Shown here one piece after another: positions 1,920 through 15,129 of a stretch of DNA of 18,787 nt; positions within the stretch are counted from its first letter, which is position 1; the number at the start of each line of letters is the position of its first letter. Source of the stretch: a virus (lineage: Duplodnaviria; Heunggongvirae; Uroviricota; Caudoviricetes); the IMG/VR virus record IMGVR_UViG_2778261532_000018, positions 1 through 18,787 of that record; one strand, 5' to 3'. Under the pieces are notes generated by a model. That model made no database searches. It was given only the letters and a program-made list of their open reading frames with translations, and was not told the origin of the DNA. Both the position numbers and the translations under genes were made by a program.

Positions 1920-2392
1920 ACCTCAATCTCTCTGACCATTCCGCCAGCTTCTTTGAATTTTGCAATCAGGTTGTCAGCCTTATGCTCGAACTGACCATAA
2001 CCAGCCCCCGGCAGTGAAGCCCAGATATTACTGCAACGGTCGATTGCCTGACGAATATCACCGCGGTCAATCATCGGTAAAGCGCCACGCTCTTTAATCT
2101 GCTGCAATGCCACAGCATCCTGACTTTTGGGAGAGAAGTCTTTCAGGCCAAGCTGCTTGCGATAGGCATCCCACCAACGGGAAAGAAGTTGGTAACGTCC
2201 GGCGGCTGTTGATTTGAGTTTTGGGTTTAGCGTGACAAGTTTGCGAGGGTGATCGGAGTAATCAGTGAATAGCTCTCCTCCTACAATGACGTCATAACCA
2301 TGATTTCTGGTTTTCTGACGTCCGTTATCAGTTCCCTCTGACCACGCCAGCATATCGAGGAACGCCTTACGTTGATTATTGATTTCCACCAT
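1916..2392 (-). CDS. R: Endolysin R (lytic transglycosylase)
   Basis: 158-aa product essentially matches lambda R ([45 protein letters not shown]...); start overlaps the end of S as in lambda. Confidence 0.95.
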
Positions 2393-2699
2393 CTTCTACT
2401 CCGGCTTTTTTAGCAGCGAAGCGTTTGATAAGCGAACCAATCGAGTCAGTACCGATGTAGCCGATGAACACGCTCGTTATATAAGCGAGATTGCTACTTA
2501 GTCCGGCGAAGTCGAGAAGGTCACGAATGAACCAGGCGATAATGGCGCACATCGTTGCGTCGATTACTGTTTTTGTAAACGCACCGCCATTATATCTGCC
2601 GCGAAGGTACGCCATTGCAAACGCAAGGATTGCCCCGATGCCTTGTTCCTTTGCCGCGAGAATGGCGGCTAACAGGTCATGTTTTTCTGGCATCTTCAT
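2376..2699 (-). CDS. S: Holin S (class I, dual-start S107/S105)
   Basis: 107-aa product matches lambda S ([39 protein letters not shown]...); the ATGAAGATG dual start motif is present. Confidence 0.95.
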
Positions 2700-2941: not shown

Positions 2942-3017
2942 TGGTGCTGGTTAACGGACTTGAACCGCTACCCATTCGCTTACAAGGCGACGGCTCTACC
3001 ATTGGAGCTAAACCAGC
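2942..3017 (-). tRNA. tRNA, predicted anticodon UGU (Thr)
   Basis: Manual cloverleaf on minus strand: acceptor GCTGGTT/AACCAGC 7/7 bp, D stem GCTC/GAGC, anticodon stem 4/5 bp with loop CTTGTAA, T arm AGCGG-TTCAAGT-CCGTT, discriminator A, encoded CCA. Confidence 0.6.
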
Positions 3018-3022
3018 ATATT

Positions 3023-3097
3023 TGGCGGGACAGCGTGGACTCGAACCACGATAAGAAGGTTAACAGCCTTCCGTAATGACCTTTATACGACTGACCC
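3023..3097 (-). tRNA. tRNA-like gene, predicted anticodon GUU (Asn-like); weaker fold
   Basis: Minus strand: anticodon arm GAAGG-CTGTTAA-CCTTC and T arm CGTGG-TTCGAGT-CCACG with loops identical to E. coli tRNA-Asn as I recall it; discriminator G, encoded CCA; one U-U mismatch each in acceptor and D stems; 4-nt variable loop. Confidence 0.45.
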
Positions 3098-3187: not shown

Positions 3188-3676
3188 CTATGCTACATGT
3201 TTAATTTTCTCTACACGTTTCCGGTTTTTAAACGCACTATCCAGAACCGGGCAAATCATAAACAACGAGGCATTAAGGATTTCGTCAACTTCCCGTCGAC
3301 AGGTTGCGAGCGATGGTTTTTGAATGCGCCCGCCGCCACGGCATAACATCTTGCGAGGTCTTGCGACGCGATGATAGTAAGATGCAATGGCGTGCTTGGA
3401 AGAACCATGAGCGTAGTAGCTGAGGAGGATGCCAAAGGCTTTCTTGTCAATGCACATGACGGAATCGACGACCTGAGAAATCAACATTCCATCATCATCA
3501 TTGCACATTGGCCTTGTCATAACTCTTCCCGGCTCTACGCTCTCCATGAACTTCGCTATTACGCTGCTCATACGCTTTTCCAGACGACCTGAATAAACCC
3601 ATGCGCCCCACAGTTCAAGCCAGCCATTCAGCCACTCATGCTGTTCTTTGGTGAGGTTTAGTTCTCTTATGCCCAC
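3188..3676 (-). CDS. Q: Late-gene antiterminator Q (non-lambda Q family, phage 82/21/933W-like)
   Basis: 162-aa ORF directly upstream of the late promoter/tRNA/S region; unrelated to lambda Q but resembles Q proteins of other lambdoid phages as I recall them. Confidence 0.7.
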
Positions 3677-4338
3677 GCGCCTTCTCCCTGTACCTGAATC
3701 AATGTGAGATTTCCGCAGAACACTGCGCCGGTATCGATATACATCTGGTTGGCAAATTTGAGTGGTTTCACTGCTGGCGTATGACCAAAGATGAACGTGT
3801 CCGCGCCTTTAATTTCTTTCACGATCCCGTCTTGTGAGTTGCTGATTCGTTTGCGGTTCCAGATTACCTGCTGATGATCAACTGGCTTTCCAAACTCGTA
3901 TTCGTCAAAGGGATAATCGGCGTGGCAGATAACATATTTTTTATCTTTGCTCACCAGTTCGATGATTAACGGAAGTTCTTCTGCTTTATGGGCAAGAGCT
4001 TTAGCCAGAATTTCTTTGTCGTAATCGAGATTAAAGAACCAGCCACCGCCATTAAGCAGCCAGTGATTGACGTTTCCACGCTCTGATAAGCCATCAATCA
4101 TCATGTGCTCATGGTTTCCACGTACAGCTCTGAACCAGGGGAATGTGATTAATTCCAGGCATTCAACGTTCTCTGCACCACGATCAACCAAATCGCCCAC
4201 CGAGATAAGCAGGTCTTTTTTGTTGTCGAATCCAATCGTATCCAGTTTGTTCATCAGGTTCGTGTAGCATCCGTGCAGATCGCCAACTACCCAAATATTT
4301 CGGTATTTGCTGCCATCAATTCTTTCGTAGATATTCAT
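3667..4338 (-). CDS. ninI: Ser/Thr protein phosphatase NinI (lambda PPase, calcineurin-like)
   Basis: 223-aa product with GDLHG and GNHE metallophosphatase motifs; near-identical to the lambda phosphatase as I recall; ATGA overlap with ninG stop. Confidence 0.9.
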
Positions 4339-4937
4339 GCAGCCTCACTTCTGCTGTTTCGCAGTTTTTTAAGTTTCTGTTGATACTCCGCCTTGATGGC
4401 CCTGCACTCTTCGACAGTCCAGCGATGGCGGTTATGGTTTGATTCGATTTCGTCTACTGCTTCCTGCCCGATGCGGTTAATCAGTTCGACGCGATACGGA
4501 ACGAGATTTCCGCTTTTATGTTGGTTGCACACCACGCATTGCTTGTGAATATTGCGTTCATCAAATCGGAGTTGAGGCGCCGCAGCAGTTGTCCGGTAAT
4601 GCCCGGCATCCCACTGAGCAGACGTGAGCGTTCCGCACGAGATACATGGTAAGTCGCGGTCTCTTTCTCTGATGAAGGCGTTTACGGCTTGTTGGGCTTG
4701 TTTAATCCAGTAACTGCGGGGCTTTAAGGCGAGTTTTCGAATCTTAAGTTTATCTTTCTGTCTCTGATCCTCTCGTCGTCGTTTCTTCTCTGCTGCTTTT
4801 TCCGCTTTTTCGCGTTCTTTGCTTCGTCGTTCGAGTGCTATCTTTGTTCCACAAATCTCATTACACCAATATTGATTTTGATATTTTGGTATAAACCATT
4901 CATTGCAACATTTACATTTCCTTCGATAGATTCGCAT
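4335..4937 (-). CDS. ninG: NinG (Rap) recombination protein with recoded N-terminus
   Basis: ATG at 4937 preceded by AGGAG; product [15 protein letters not shown]... becomes lambda-NinG-like from [18 protein letters not shown] onward; the first ~30 codons are AT-rich and divergent. Confidence 0.8.
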
Positions 4938-5478
4938 AAGTGCTCCTTTCGTTGCCGGAAAAATCACCGTAATACTTATCTCGGGCTTCTTCAGCAACTA
5001 GTACCGCTAACTCCAGATCATCAAAGCATCCGAAGTGTTTACTCTTGCCATGGAAACCTAGCCTAACATTCCATTTTTTCTGTCGTTTGTGCCAAGTAAC
5101 TCCTCTGCAACCTGATTTGCTATTCTTTCGGATCCTTATATTTCTTGAATTTTCTATTGGCAGGCATTCTCTTAAATTTTCTGGCCTATTGTCGGTCCTA
5201 ATTCCATTAACGTGGTCAATTTGACCAGCAGGCCAACGATTATGAGTTATGTAAAAAACTAAGACGTGAGTTTTATATCTACGCCCATCAATCATGATCA
5301 TTGAATAACCGTTGGAATCAAAAGTTCCAGCAACACTATTTAATGCTATCCTTCCCTGAGTGGGAACTTTCCATCTAAATACACCGGTAGATTTATCGAA
5401 ACTTAGTAACTCAAATATCCTTTTAACAGTTAAATCTTCTCTTTTACGGTTACATCGTCTTCGCGCTGGTTTAGCCAT
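4912..5478 (-). CDS. HNH homing endonuclease (HNH_3 plus AP2-like DNA-binding domain) fused to the native ninG start
   Basis: 188-aa ORF; first 9 codons MAKPARRRC sit at the normal ninF/ninG junction; then HNH motif ([16 protein letters not shown]) and AP2-like segment ([27 protein letters not shown]); AT-rich. Confidence 0.75.
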
Positions 5479-5647
5479 CGTCTTCTTCCTCGTACATTGA
5501 GCTATTCGGATCGCTCATCAGTTCTGCGCAGCAATCGGAGCACACGTGAACTTCCAGCACATGCAGCTTCTGACCGCAGTTAGCGCACGTTAAAGCTCGC
5601 TCGACGCTTTCTTTCTGGTATTGAAGGGATTGGGATTGGCTAAGCAT
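5471..5647 (-). CDS. ninF: NinF
   Basis: Product from [36 protein letters not shown]... matches lambda NinF as I recall it; start chosen at the internal ATG 5647. Confidence 0.8.
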   Translation of the reverse strand: MLSQSQSLQYQKESVERALTCANCGQKLHVLEVHVCSDCCAELMSDPNSSMYEEEDDG

Positions 5648-6047
5648 GGATTTCACCATTAAAAAGTCGCTTGTAAGCATCAATGTCTCGTTTTGCTTCA
5701 CCGAGCTTTCGTCTTAATTCCATGTTTTCTGATTCAAGCTTTTCCATGTCTTGTTGGTATCGATCGCGGTGTTCTTTCCATGCTTTTTGATACGCCTTCA
5801 TGTATGTCGTATTGGCCTTTCTCTTTGCCTGACGAACCGCATGGTGGTTTTTCACAAACCAGTCAGGGTCGTTAAATGCTGCTCTGGCGCAGGTATACCA
5901 ATAATTTGTTGCCTCCCTGTTTAGCCAATAAATACTGATAAATGGCAACCGGATAGACACCATTTTTCGTTGTGACTCTTTCTCGCCAAACATGTGTCCT
6001 TTTTTGATGCTAAGGCCAAATCCAGGTTGAATTAAAAGCATTGTCAT
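5640..6047 (-). CDS. Hypothetical nin-region protein (slot between ninE and ninF, where P22-like phages carry ninX)
   Basis: 135-aa ORF whose ATG overlaps the ninE stop (ATGA); charged, probably coiled-coil C-terminus; no lambda counterpart recalled. Confidence 0.5.
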
Positions 6048-6220
6048 TTCCTCGCACGTTCTCTAAGCCACCGGATATCCCACAGGTGAGCCGTGTAGTT
6101 GAAGGTTTTTACGTCAGATTCTTTTGGGATTGGCTTGCGTTTATTTCTGGAGCGTTTCGTTGGAAGGTATTTGCAGTTTTCGCAGATGATGTCGGTGATA
6201 CTTCGTCGCTGTCGTCTCAT
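6044..6220 (-). CDS. ninE: NinE
   Basis: Manually translated 58-aa ORF, below the 60-aa cutoff of the ORF track: [58 protein letters not shown]; ATGA overlaps on both sides. Confidence 0.7.
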
Positions 6221-7062
6221 GACGCATCCTCAAAATTAAATCCAAGCTGACATGAAAATGCTTCACATGATTCAGAACACGAACCTGAATCATACTGTCG
6301 CATTGATGTCATTCTTGAGGCTAACTCATCTCTTGATATATCACTAAACAAGGCAATCAGTGATTTAAGTGTATTATTCCCTCGATACATAACCGGTTCC
6401 TTTCCTGTTTTTATTTCTGTATCAAGGATGTTGATAAATGCATCTGCAAGTTCTGGCTCATCCATGGCTGCCAGCGCCACCTTTTGCATACTTTTTTTTA
6501 TGCAGAAAACACAATTACCAAGATGCTCCTGTATGCCAAGATCAAACTTCTGCTCACTCCACCAATCAAGCACATCCTGTTTTTCAAAATCGCTTATATC
6601 AGCCAGGTACCGAAAACCATTAGCCCTTTTAAGCCTGTTTGGTTCATCTGTGCGAATGCCAAGCCATGTGATGTAATTTCCTTTCCCAAACTTTTCCTGA
6701 CAATATTTGGTGAATGGAACAGACTTCATTCTGTCGGTACAGAACGCACCGCCGATATATGGATGTCCGTATTTATTCAACATCCTTTTCCACGGTATAA
6801 GATCTGGACCAATATCATTGACACCTATCTCTTCATAACTACTGGCCTTCCCCATTTCTGGATTAGGTATTACACGAAGGCAATGTAAGTCTATTTTCCA
6901 GTTACTGACGATATTTCGGATGAACTCATATGTTTTAGGGTGCTCTGCCCCTGTATCCATGAAAACGTAATGCACGTCTTCACCTGCCTGTCGCTTTTGC
7001 TCCATTAGCCAGAGCAAATATGCTGACGTCCTGCCACCTGAGAAACTAACGACATTTATCAT
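6217..7062 (-). CDS. ninC: NinC (PAPS-reductase-like protein)
   Basis: Product from [24 protein letters not shown]... matches lambda NinC as I recall it; start at internal ATG 7062 overlapping the methyltransferase stop, not the extended track start 7152. Confidence 0.85.
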
Positions 7063-7586
7063 GCAGCCCTCCTGACACCCTGCCCGATCGCCATCAATGC
7101 CGCTTTGGATACGGTAGTAAACATCCGTCGAGGACTGATGAACGGTCGCCAAATCAGCAGCATGGAGCCTTTGCTGTTTCCCTTCTTCTCCAGCCCCGTC
7201 GATGGTTCGATAAAATTAATCCGTCCATCAGTGATAATACGAACTTCGTCAACACTCTCCAGAGCCTTGCTGAACCATCCGACAGACATATCCTCTGGCA
7301 CAAGCATCACTACCGTCTGTCGTTGTTGTATGCACTGCTCAGCGGCTTTTTCCACCCACGGCCTGATATTGCTGTACGGTGGGTTATTCCAGATTGCACC
7401 GTGGCTTACCCACTCAGAATTGAGCGCGTCGTCGGCCTCAGTTAGCCAGTGAGCACACAGAGCATTTTTGTCGCTCGCTGCCGAATCCAGCCAGAATCCA
7501 AACTCAATATCCAGTGCATCAAAAAGCCAAAGCGGCGTTTGCCAGCAGTCCTTGTCGTGTGCTGGCGTATTTGATTTGATAGTCAT
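7059..7586 (-). CDS. Phage DNA N6-adenine methyltransferase (Dam-like)
   Basis: 176-aa product from MTIKSNTPAHDKDCWQTPLWLFDALD... with NPPY catalytic motif (IWNNPPYSN); ATGA overlaps with ninB stop and ninC start. Confidence 0.7.
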   Translation of the reverse strand: MTIKSNTPAHDKDCWQTPLWLFDALDIEFGFWLDSAASDKNALCAHWLTEADDALNSEWVSHGAIWNNPPYSNIRPWVEKAAEQCIQQRQTVVMLVPEDMSVGWFSKALESVDEVRIITDGRINFIEPSTGLEKKGNSKGSMLLIWRPFISPRRMFTTVSKAALMAIGQGVRRAA

Positions 7587-8023
7587 GCAGCCCGATCTCC
7601 CCATCTCGCTTTCCACTCCAGAGCCAGTCTCGCTTCGTCTGACCACTTAACGCCACGCTCTGTACCGAATGCCTGTATAAGCTCTAATAGCTCCGCAAAT
7701 TCGCCTACACGCATCCTGCTGGTTGACTGGCCTATTACCACAAAGCCATTCCCGGCAAGGTTAGGAACAACATCCTGCTGCTTTAATGCTGCGGTAAACA
7801 CACACTTCCAGCTTTCTGCATCCAGCCAGCGACCATGCCATTCAACCTGACGAGAGACGTCACCAAGGCAAGCCCAAAGCTTTCGGTTTTGGTCTAAGCT
7901 GCGGTTGCGTTCCTGAATGGTTACTACGATTGGTTTGGTTGGGTCTGGAAGAATTTGCTGTACTGCGTGAATAGCGTTTTGCTGATGTGCTGGAGATCGA
8001 ATTTCAAAGGTTAGTTTTTTCAT
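7583..8023 (-). CDS. ninB: NinB recombination protein
   Basis: Product from MKKLTFEIRSPAHQQNAIHAVQQILPDPTKPIVVTIQERNRSLDQNRKLWACLGDVSRQVEWHGRWL... matches lambda NinB as I recall it. Confidence 0.9.
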   Translation of the reverse strand: MKKLTFEIRSPAHQQNAIHAVQQILPDPTKPIVVTIQERNRSLDQNRKLWACLGDVSRQVEWHGRWLDAESWKCVFTAALKQQDVVPNLAGNGFVVIGQSTSRMRVGEFAELLELIQAFGTERGVKWSDEARLALEWKARWGDRAA

Positions 8024-8037
8024 GACTTCCCTCTCCC

Positions 8038-8071
8038 CCAAATAAAAAGGCCTGCGATTACCAGCAGGCCT
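8038..8071 (-). terminator. Intrinsic terminator between ren and ninB (tR2-like position)
   Basis: Minus strand: AGGCCTGC-TGGTAATC-GCAGGCCT followed by TTTTTATTT. Confidence 0.65.
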
Positions 8072-8096
8072 GTTATTAGCTCAGTGATGTAGATGG

Positions 8097-8387
8097 TCAT
8101 CTTTTAACTCCATATACCGCCAATACCCGTTTCATCGCGGCACTCTGGCGACACTCCTTAAAAATCAGGTTCGTGCTCATCTTTCCTTCCCGTTCTTCCC
8201 TGGTAGCAAACCGGTAATACACCGTTCGCCAGACCTTACCTTCGATAACCAGAAGACCTGCCCGTGCCATTTTAGCCGCGGCCTGATTTATGCTGGTTAC
8301 TGTTGCGCCTGTTAGCGCGGCAACGTCCGGCGCACAGAAGCTATTATGCGTCCCCAGGTAATGAATAATTGCCTCTTTGCCCGTCAT
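8097..8387 (-). CDS. ren: Ren
   Basis: 96-aa product MTGKEAIIHYLGTHNSFCAPDVAALTGATVTSINQAAAKMARAG... matches lambda Ren as I recall it. Confidence 0.9.
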   Translation of the reverse strand: MTGKEAIIHYLGTHNSFCAPDVAALTGATVTSINQAAAKMARAGLLVIEGKVWRTVYYRFATREEREGKMSTNLIFKECRQSAAMKRVLAVYGVKR

Positions 8388-9085
8388 ACACTTGCTCCTT
8401 TCAGTCCGAACTTAGCTTTGAGTTCTGCGATCTTCGCCAGAGCCTGTGCACGATTTAGAGGTCTACCGCCCATGACAGGAAGTTGTTTTACTGGTTCAGG
8501 GATCGCCTCACCACGGTTAATTCTCGCAGTCATATGGACAAGCTCATCTGCGGCCTTACGGCGTAATTCCGCATCAGTAAGCGCATTGGCCCGCATGTTC
8601 TGATACAGGTTGGTAACCAGCCAGTAGTGCGCGTTTGATTTCCACGGATAAGACTCCGCATCCGGATACAGGCCTCGCTTCCGGCAATACTCGTAAACCA
8701 TATCAACCAGCTCGCTGACGTTTGGCAGTCCGGCGATAACGGATGCTTCTTCCCGGCACCATGCAACAAACTGCCCGGGTGATGGCAGAAATGGTCGATT
8801 CTGCCGACGGGCTACGCGCATTCCTGCGTTAACCTGTTCCATTGTGGTGATCCCGTTTTCCCGGAAAGCCAGCACCCACTGGCGGCGGATTTCGTTCAGT
8901 TCGTTCTGGTCCCGGTTAGCCAGGCTCGCCGGGAAAGTTGCCAGTAACTGGCTGAACACACCATTGATGATCTGCGCTACCTGTTGTACCTGCGGCTTTT
9001 CGTCGTACTGTTCCGGCATGTTGTTGGCGATCCGACGCATCTGCTCACGGTCAAAGTTAACCATCTGTGCGGCGATGTTTTTCAT
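8384..9085 (-). CDS. P: Replication protein P (DnaB helicase loader)
   Basis: 233-aa product MKNIAAQMVNFDREQMRRIANNMPEQYDEKPQVQQVAQIING... matches lambda P as I recall it. Confidence 0.95.
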   Translation of the reverse strand: MKNIAAQMVNFDREQMRRIANNMPEQYDEKPQVQQVAQIINGVFSQLLATFPASLANRDQNELNEIRRQWVLAFRENGITTMEQVNAGMRVARRQNRPFLPSPGQFVAWCREEASVIAGLPNVSELVDMVYEYCRKRGLYPDAESYPWKSNAHYWLVTNLYQNMRANALTDAELRRKAADELVHMTARINRGEAIPEPVKQLPVMGGRPLNRAQALAKIAELKAKFGLKGASV

Positions 9086-14343: not shown

Positions 14344-15129
14344 ATGAGTACAGCACTCGCAACGCTGGCAGGGAAGCTGGCTGAACGTGTCGGCATGGAT
14401 TCTGTCGACCCACAGGAACTGATCACCACTCTTCGCCAGACGGCATTTAAAGGTGATGCCAGCGATGCGCAGTTCATCGCATTGTTGATCGTCGCCAACC
14501 AGTATGGCCTTAATCCGTGGACGAAAGAAATTTACGCCTTCCCTGATAAGCAGAACGGCATCGTTCCGGTGGTGGGCGTTGATGGCTGGTCCCGCATCAT
14601 CAATGAAAACCAGCAGTTTGATGGCATGGACTTTGAGCAGGACAATGAATCCTGCACATGCCGGATTTACCGCAAGGACCGTAATCATCCGATCTGCGTT
14701 ACCGAGTGGATGGATGAATGCCGCCGCGAACCATTCAAAACCCGCGAAGGCAGAGAAATTACGGGGCCGTGGCAGTCGCATCCCAAACGGATGTTACGGC
14801 ATAAAGCCATGATTCAGTGTGCCCGTCTCGCCTTCGGATTTGCGGGTATCTATGACAAGGATGAAGCCGAGCGCATTGTCGAAAATACCGCATACACTGC
14901 AGAACGTCAGCCGGAACGCGACATCACTCCGGTTAACGATGAAACCATGCAGGAGATTAACACTCTGCTGATCGCCCTGGATAAAACATGGGATGACGAC
15001 TTATTGCCGCTCTGTTCCCAGATATTTCGCCGCGACATTCGTGCATCGTCAGAACTGACACAGGACGAAGCAGTGAAAGCTCTTGGATTCCTGAAACAAA
15101 AAGCCACTGAACAGAAGGTGGCAGCATGA
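14344..15129 (+). CDS. bet: Bet (Red-beta single-strand annealing protein)
   Basis: 261-aa product [48 protein letters not shown]... matches lambda Bet. Confidence 0.95.

Follow-up and report, generated by a model that had tools for sequence, protein, structure and literature searches.

Gene content of the locus

The 18,787-nucleotide stretch of DNA analyzed here, hereafter the window, comes from a lambdoid phage or prophage and has its early-right operon on the minus strand. Roughly 52% of the window aligns to lambda at 96.7% identity, and its best match in E. coli is a prophage in strain PEC41 (79% coverage, 99.1% identity). Within the nin region of the operon, a gene for a phage N6-adenine DNA methyltransferase, hereafter dam, lies between ninB and a ninC-like gene (Table 1). 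A methyltransferase had been placed here by the initial annotation, which also remarked that lambda itself has none; the minus-strand open reading frame (ORF) with its PF05869 and TIGR01712 matches bears out the first point, and comparison with lambda bears out the second.

Table 1. Coordinates of dam, its neighbors, the junction sequences, and other features of the window.
Feature	Position	Strand	Details
Holin gene	2376..2699		
tRNA-Thr(TGT) and tRNA-Asn(GTT)	2942-3097	-	Between Q gene and holin gene
Q antiterminator gene	3188..3676	-	162 aa; PF06530
GGCNGCATGA	4335-4344	-	ninG/ninI junction, where ninH is missing
HNH_3+AP2 ORF	4912..5478	-	188 aa; between ninF and ninG
phrog_1511 ORF	5640..6047	-	135 aa; between ninE and ninF
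ninC-like gene	6217..7062	-	PAPS-reductase/PP-loop protein, 281 aa; PF01507, phrog_33262
dam	7059..7586	-	Phage N6-adenine DNA methyltransferase, 175 aa; PF05869, TIGR01712, phrog_111
GGCNGCATGA	7059-7068	-	dam/ninC junction
Downstream repeat copy GGGCTGCATGA	7059..7069	-	dam/ninC junction
ninB (orf)	7583..8023	-	Recombination mediator; PF05772, E 2e-54; 100% identical to lambda NinB
GGCNGCATGA	7583-7592	-	ninB/dam junction
Upstream repeat copy GGGCTGCATGA	7583..7593	-	ninB/dam junction; Ala-Ala-stop overlapped by the next ATG
Intrinsic terminator	8048..8071	-	Between ren and ninB; 8-bp stem with 6 GC pairs, then T run TTTTATTT
ren	8097..8387		
GGCNGCATGA	15120-15129	+	bet/exo junction

Direct reading of the window sequence gives a gene of 528 nt, that is, 175 codons plus a stop; the length of 176 residues first reported had counted the stop codon. 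The same reading recovers the ATGA couplings described for both ends of the gene: the ninB stop TGA (7583-7585) overlaps the dam ATG (7584-7586), and the dam stop TGA (7059-7061) overlaps the ninC ATG (7060-7062). The ATG at 7586 is also the start used by the family, in which the 175-residue cluster representative (P0001) stands for 2325 member sequences. We rejected a GTG start at 7646, which would lengthen the protein to 195 residues, because it overlaps ninB by 60 nt and homologs begin MTIKSN. A plus-strand ORF (7105..7452, 115 residues) was rejected as a shadow of the strongly supported minus-strand gene.

The NinC-like protein is only 57% identical to lambda NinC and represents a different allele. 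Genes ninD and ninH had been described as missing from this nin region, and we find the same: tblastn with lambda NinD and NinH returned nothing significant, and ninC runs straight into ninE, as ninG does into ninI. In addition, the region contains two ORFs that lambda does not have and that the initial annotation did not mention. One, the phrog_1511 ORF, occupies a slot that holds NinX/DUF2591 in other phages, and Pfam, NCBIfam, and PADLOC returned no match to assign it a function. The other is an HNH_3+AP2 ORF of the homing-endonuclease type, which opens with the first nine codons of lambda ninG (MAKPARRRC). The body of NinG follows from another ATG, near 4937; its N-terminus has been replaced, and it has an AAAGGAG ribosome-binding site of its own. 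The HNH ORF looks like a mobile endonuclease gene that has inserted at the 5' end of ninG. In E. coli HNSQ2209, fragments of NinF flank a comparable HNH ORF.

The description of the methyltransferase as an orphan is upheld: dam is flanked by the NinB and NinC-like genes with no restriction partner adjacent, and its best PADLOC matches are to 'orphan methyltransferase' (oMTase) models. As a candidate cognate nuclease, the HNH ORF was rejected because it is of the homing type, lies 1.6 kb away, and is missing from other phages with dam, for example VT2-Sakai.

Family assignment, conserved residues, and predicted fold

Three family libraries match the Dam protein. In Pfam it matches PF05869, 'DNA N-6-adenine-methyltransferase (Dam)', over profile positions 1-167 of 169 (E 6.4e-65; 218.4 bits against a cut-off of 28.1 bits), and in NCBIfam it matches the equivalog TIGR01712, 'phage N-6-adenine-methyltransferase', over the full profile (1-165 of 165; 265.9 bits against a cut-off of 97.05 bits); the third match is to phrog_111, 'DNA methyltransferase'.

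We aligned diverse family members at 32-67% identity to the query, 45 sequences with the query included. Six residues are invariant in this alignment (T17, D34, N68, P70, R122, and F125), and ten more are conserved in at least 90% of its members (P18, A37, W59, P69, Y71, L95, W104, N137, G140, and S141); all sixteen are present in the window protein. Among 44 closer family members, 42 columns are invariant. The NPPY motif reported initially occupies residues 68-71 and corresponds to catalytic motif IV, (D/N)PPY. A conserved N-terminal TP...D (motif X/I-like) is also present, and D34 is the motif-I-like conserved Asp. Loss of essential catalytic residues had been named as one observation that would overturn the initial finding; every family-invariant residue is kept, and no such loss is seen.

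A confident AlphaFold2 model built from 44 homologs (pLDDT 88.1, pTM 0.86) consists of a single alpha/beta domain, and its predicted fold is that of the class I SAM-methyltransferases (Rossmann-like) of the N6-adenine group. A phmmer search against PDB sequences found no meaningful relative of solved structure (best match SdiA, E 0.24), so that only fold comparison is informative. The search for a target-recognition domain family that had been proposed is largely moot, since one Rossmann-type domain makes up the whole protein, leaving no distinct target-recognition domain, and GATC is reported for an identical enzyme (see below). Without such a domain, the recognition of DNA would fall to loops in the catalytic domain, possibly by way of oligomerization.

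Identity with a GATC methyltransferase of phage VT2-Sakai

The window protein is identical over 175/175 residues to orf32 (NP_050531.1) of the Shiga-toxin phage VT2-Sakai, the sole annotated methyltransferase in that 60.9-kb genome. The VT-2 phage Dam was cloned by Radlinska and Bujnicki (2001) and bears the REBASE name M.EcoVT2Dam; according to PMC6602927, the enzyme 'is known to target 5'-GATC-3'', with the 2001 study as the source. Elsewhere, the VT-2 Dam is grouped with the Dam enzymes of phages P1, HP1, and the T-even phages (PMC7556043). Equating the cloned M.EcoVT2Dam with orf32 rests on the gene name and on orf32 being the only annotated methyltransferase of VT2-Sakai. With this equivalence, the window Dam is predicted to methylate adenine in GATC, a specificity taken from the literature on the identical protein. 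The count of GATC sites in the window is neither markedly depleted nor markedly enriched (63 observed, ~72 expected) and so gives no sign of selection either way.

At the nucleotide level, 11 differences separate the window dam from its VT2-Sakai counterpart, and 11/11 are synonymous. Under a simple neutral site model with ~116 synonymous and ~409 non-synonymous sites, such an outcome has a chance of ~6e-8, which indicates that dam is under purifying selection. The possibility that the ORF is an inactive remnant, or that its specificity is other than GATC, must be weighed against this pattern. A full-length reading frame, a protein 100% identical to that of VT2-Sakai, DNA differences confined to synonymous sites, and the presence of every family-invariant residue all speak against it, and we regard it as very improbable.

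A widespread gene in an uncommon junction

By presenting the methyltransferase as a departure from lambda, the initial annotation implied that such a gene is rare in nin regions. That implication fails, because the identical protein also follows ninB in VT2-Sakai and the gene is common in databases. When a 901-nt stretch spanning the gene served as the query, dam DNA turned up in 346 phage records, from Escherichia, Salmonella, Shigella, and Stx-converting phages. Of 5426 complete E. coli genomes, 1886 contain it, at up to 7 places each, and the matched features already carry the annotation 'phage N-6-adenine-methyltransferase | recombination protein NinB'. The protein family comprises 8784 representatives of 50%-identity clusters at E<=1e-3. 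The Phi24B paper reports that the 'dam' coding sequence of that phage (clone CM2) is 100% identical to NP_050531.1 and 99% identical to the HK97 protein, and that the dam protein occurs at 99-100% identity in Min27, HK97, and other Stx phages.

The gene that follows dam varies, and in most phages it is ninE. Joined to the ninC allele of the window, dam occurs in only 18 of the 5426 complete E. coli genomes, HNSQ2209 among them (query centered on the junction, coverage of at least 80%).

The NinC-like protein deserves mention in its own right: its PP-loop/PAPS-reductase domain matches the PADLOC models SspD (E 2.4e-14), BrxP, and DndC. SspD, BrxP, and DndC are proteins of DNA phosphorothioation and BREX systems. 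This resemblance, together with the translational coupling of the two genes, led us to consider whether Dam and this NinC allele act jointly as a two-enzyme DNA-modification module, as opposed to being two independent nin genes. Their distribution argues against it, since dam occurs without ninC in VT2-Sakai and ninC occurs without dam in lambda and in SE16, as expected of genes that assort independently, and since the junction of dam with this allele is confined to so few genomes. We consider a joint module highly improbable.

Sequence repeats at the boundaries of the dam cassette

The same 11-bp sequence, GGGCTGCATGA, flanks dam on both sides as a direct repeat on the minus strand. Lambda's own ninB/ninC junction consists of this 11-mer, such that removing one repeat together with the cassette would restore the lambda junction exactly. 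Comparison of homology blocks with lambda and VT2-Sakai places the breakpoints at these repeats. Homology to lambda (98.2% identity) runs from 8200 to 7583 and ends there, homology to VT2-Sakai (97.9% identity) extends over exactly 7593..7059, and beyond 7059, in the ninC allele, identity to lambda drops to 69%.

Other junctions were compared by DNA alignment. In Salmonella P22-like phages such as SE16, the ninC allele of the window is joined straight to ninB through the same kind of junction. Across 10 junctions involving five elements, the core GC-GCATGA (alignment columns 36-44, with a variable base between GC and GC) is invariant whatever the flanking genes. A looser 10-mer, GGCNGCATGA, which likewise encodes Ala-Ala-stop overlapped by the next ATG, has four copies in the window, all of them at ATGA gene junctions (Table 1); 0.26 are expected by chance, and 0 of 200 shuffles reached four. 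The 10-mer looks like a module-boundary and translational-coupling signal common to both early operons.

Clark et al. (2001), cited in PMC3029335, proposed that 'short conserved boundary sequences' are focal points for recombination in lambdoid phages. The dam cassette has the corresponding architecture, a short conserved sequence at both junctions with the homology breakpoints inside it, and judging from the sequence it agrees with this earlier proposal on lambdoid mosaicism. We suggest that dam is a mosaic cassette that would pass from one lambdoid phage to another through recombination at the conserved GGGCTGCATGA junction. The 11-bp repeats around it offer a clear, textbook-style illustration of module exchange at gene boundaries.

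Mosaic structure is also apparent farther downstream. The Q antiterminator has no detectable similarity to lambda Q, and the ninI/Q junction keeps lambda flanks with GCGCGTGGGC where lambda has GCGCATGAGA, and hence is without lambda's ATGA overlap. This junction is another mosaic breakpoint at a gene boundary. Between the Q and holin genes lie two tRNA genes (Table 1); in Stx phages this slot carries tRNAs and stx genes, and in the window it is without a toxin gene.

Position of dam in the early-right operon

A terminator scan identified a strong intrinsic terminator upstream of ninB, in a stretch 98.2% identical to lambda, which by its position we take to be lambda tR2. The nin region owes its name to the N-independence that results when these terminators are deleted. 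Lying downstream of this tR2-like terminator in the pR operon, dam would be transcribed only after N antitermination, as a delayed-early gene, a timing that draws on the operon structure of lambda and on quantitative PCR in Phi24B. There, the expression profile of the identical dam gene was linked to the lytic cycle (Phi24B paper). Early expression, as first proposed, is therefore plausible. The enzyme would be made during infection or induction, and its translation would be coupled to that of ninB and ninC through the ATGA stop/start overlaps.

This placement bears on an alternative in which Dam mainly regulates lysis-lysogeny or host genes by reinforcing GATC methylation at Dam-sensitive promoters or operators, instead of shielding DNA from restriction. 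Several points favor such a role: host Dam is essential for maintenance of lysogeny by Stx phage 933W (Murphy et al., 2008, as cited in the Phi24B paper), the Phi24B authors suggest that the phage Dam could play a similar role or supplement the host enzyme, and they detected the Dam protein (clone CM2) by CMAT in cultures of the lysogen. The same study, however, placed dam by qPCR with the lytic-cycle genes and not with cI, and dam sits behind tR2 in an operon, that of pR, which a lysogen keeps repressed. A separate promoter is not apparent either: no convincing match was found upstream of dam within ninB or between tR2 and ninB. Over 5400-8500 there was a single promoter-like match, within dam, and shuffled sequences gave more. 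We judge a mainly regulatory role unlikely.

Proposed role of the phage methyltransferase

Taken as a whole, the locus is very probably a known gene of the lambdoid-phage/T1/HP1 dam family that encodes the M.EcoVT2Dam protein: an orphan, delayed-early GATC methyltransferase carried on a mosaic cassette, with a proposed role in topping up methylation. In this proposal, Dam would act as a small, single-domain, SAM-dependent enzyme that makes N6-methyladenine in GATC.

E. coli hosts are normally Dam+. The phage enzyme thus duplicates a specificity of the host, and it is not evident what the phage gains from a second GATC methylase; the role of phage Dam enzymes has been called poorly understood (PMC7556043). 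We infer that Dam may top up the GATC methylation of fast-replicating phage DNA independently of a limiting supply of host Dam. As a result, progeny would carry fully methylated DNA, which GATC-cutting, methylation-sensitive restriction systems of the next host would leave intact, and progeny from dam-deficient hosts would be protected as well. MutH-dependent mismatch repair and Dam-sensitive regulation could be affected incidentally.

Mismatch repair could also be the point of the enzyme. Rapid and full GATC methylation might serve phage recombination and replication by preventing MutH nicking, and with it the abortion by MutHLS of Red/NinB/NinG recombination between diverged phage sequences. 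The logic follows from established Dam/MutH biology, and dam is embedded in and coupled to the nin recombination genes, with ninB/orf directly upstream and ninG/rap downstream. That proximity loses force, however, because dam assorts independently of ninB alleles and of ninG, and the prophages in E. coli PEC41 and HNSQ2209 have RusA in place of ninG alongside dam. We consider a recombination role improbable, and methylation top-up with protection from restriction remains our preferred interpretation.

Whatever the benefit, the gene itself is ordinary: it is already known, annotated, widespread, and identical to a characterized enzyme. The interpretation given in the initial annotation is thus partly supported, being right on enzyme class and orphan status and wrong in implying novelty. 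As a discovery, the locus has little value: the gene and its family have been described before, as have the placement behind ninB and the GATC specificity, and standard pipelines annotate the gene. As to why a lambdoid phage should bring a GATC methylase of its own into a Dam+ host, the locus adds nothing beyond the many identical copies already known.

Comparison with known systems

The host and phage enzymes are distinct proteins. The E. coli Dam has ~278 residues, and the phage Dam is much smaller. A phmmer comparison with PDB sequences detects no similarity between the phage protein and host Dam (PF02086; PDB 2ore, 4rtk), and the host enzyme has a DNA-recognition domain inserted between its motifs, whereas the phage enzyme is without this insertion. 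At the level of fold, a Foldseek search with the Dam model matches PCIF1/CAPAM (PDB 6irx; E 1e-4), a eukaryotic cap-specific mRNA adenosine N6-methyltransferase. The two share only 15-16% identity, and PCIF1, unlike the phage Dam, is a large multidomain protein that acts on RNA. The resemblance is a fold-level curiosity, with no evidence of shared function.

The closest parallels are found in other lambdoid phages. In VT2-Sakai, the methyltransferase gene is likewise 528 nt long and directly follows ninB with an ATGA overlap, in the order ninB-methyltransferase-ninE with 4-nt overlaps; the two loci differ downstream of dam, where VT2-Sakai has ninE and the window has its ninC allele. Salmonella phage vB_SosS_Oslo (gp64) and E. 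coli prophages such as those of HNSQ2209 and PC-NDM34 show the ninB-dam-ninC order with 4-nt overlaps as in the window, and the gene is annotated in them as DNA methyltransferase / phage N-6-adenine-methyltransferase. In Oslo, a lambda-like ninC is followed by ninD (ninB-dam-ninC-ninD-ninE), unlike in the window. The ninB-dam-ninC arrangement of the window is uncommon, although public records already contain it in annotated form.
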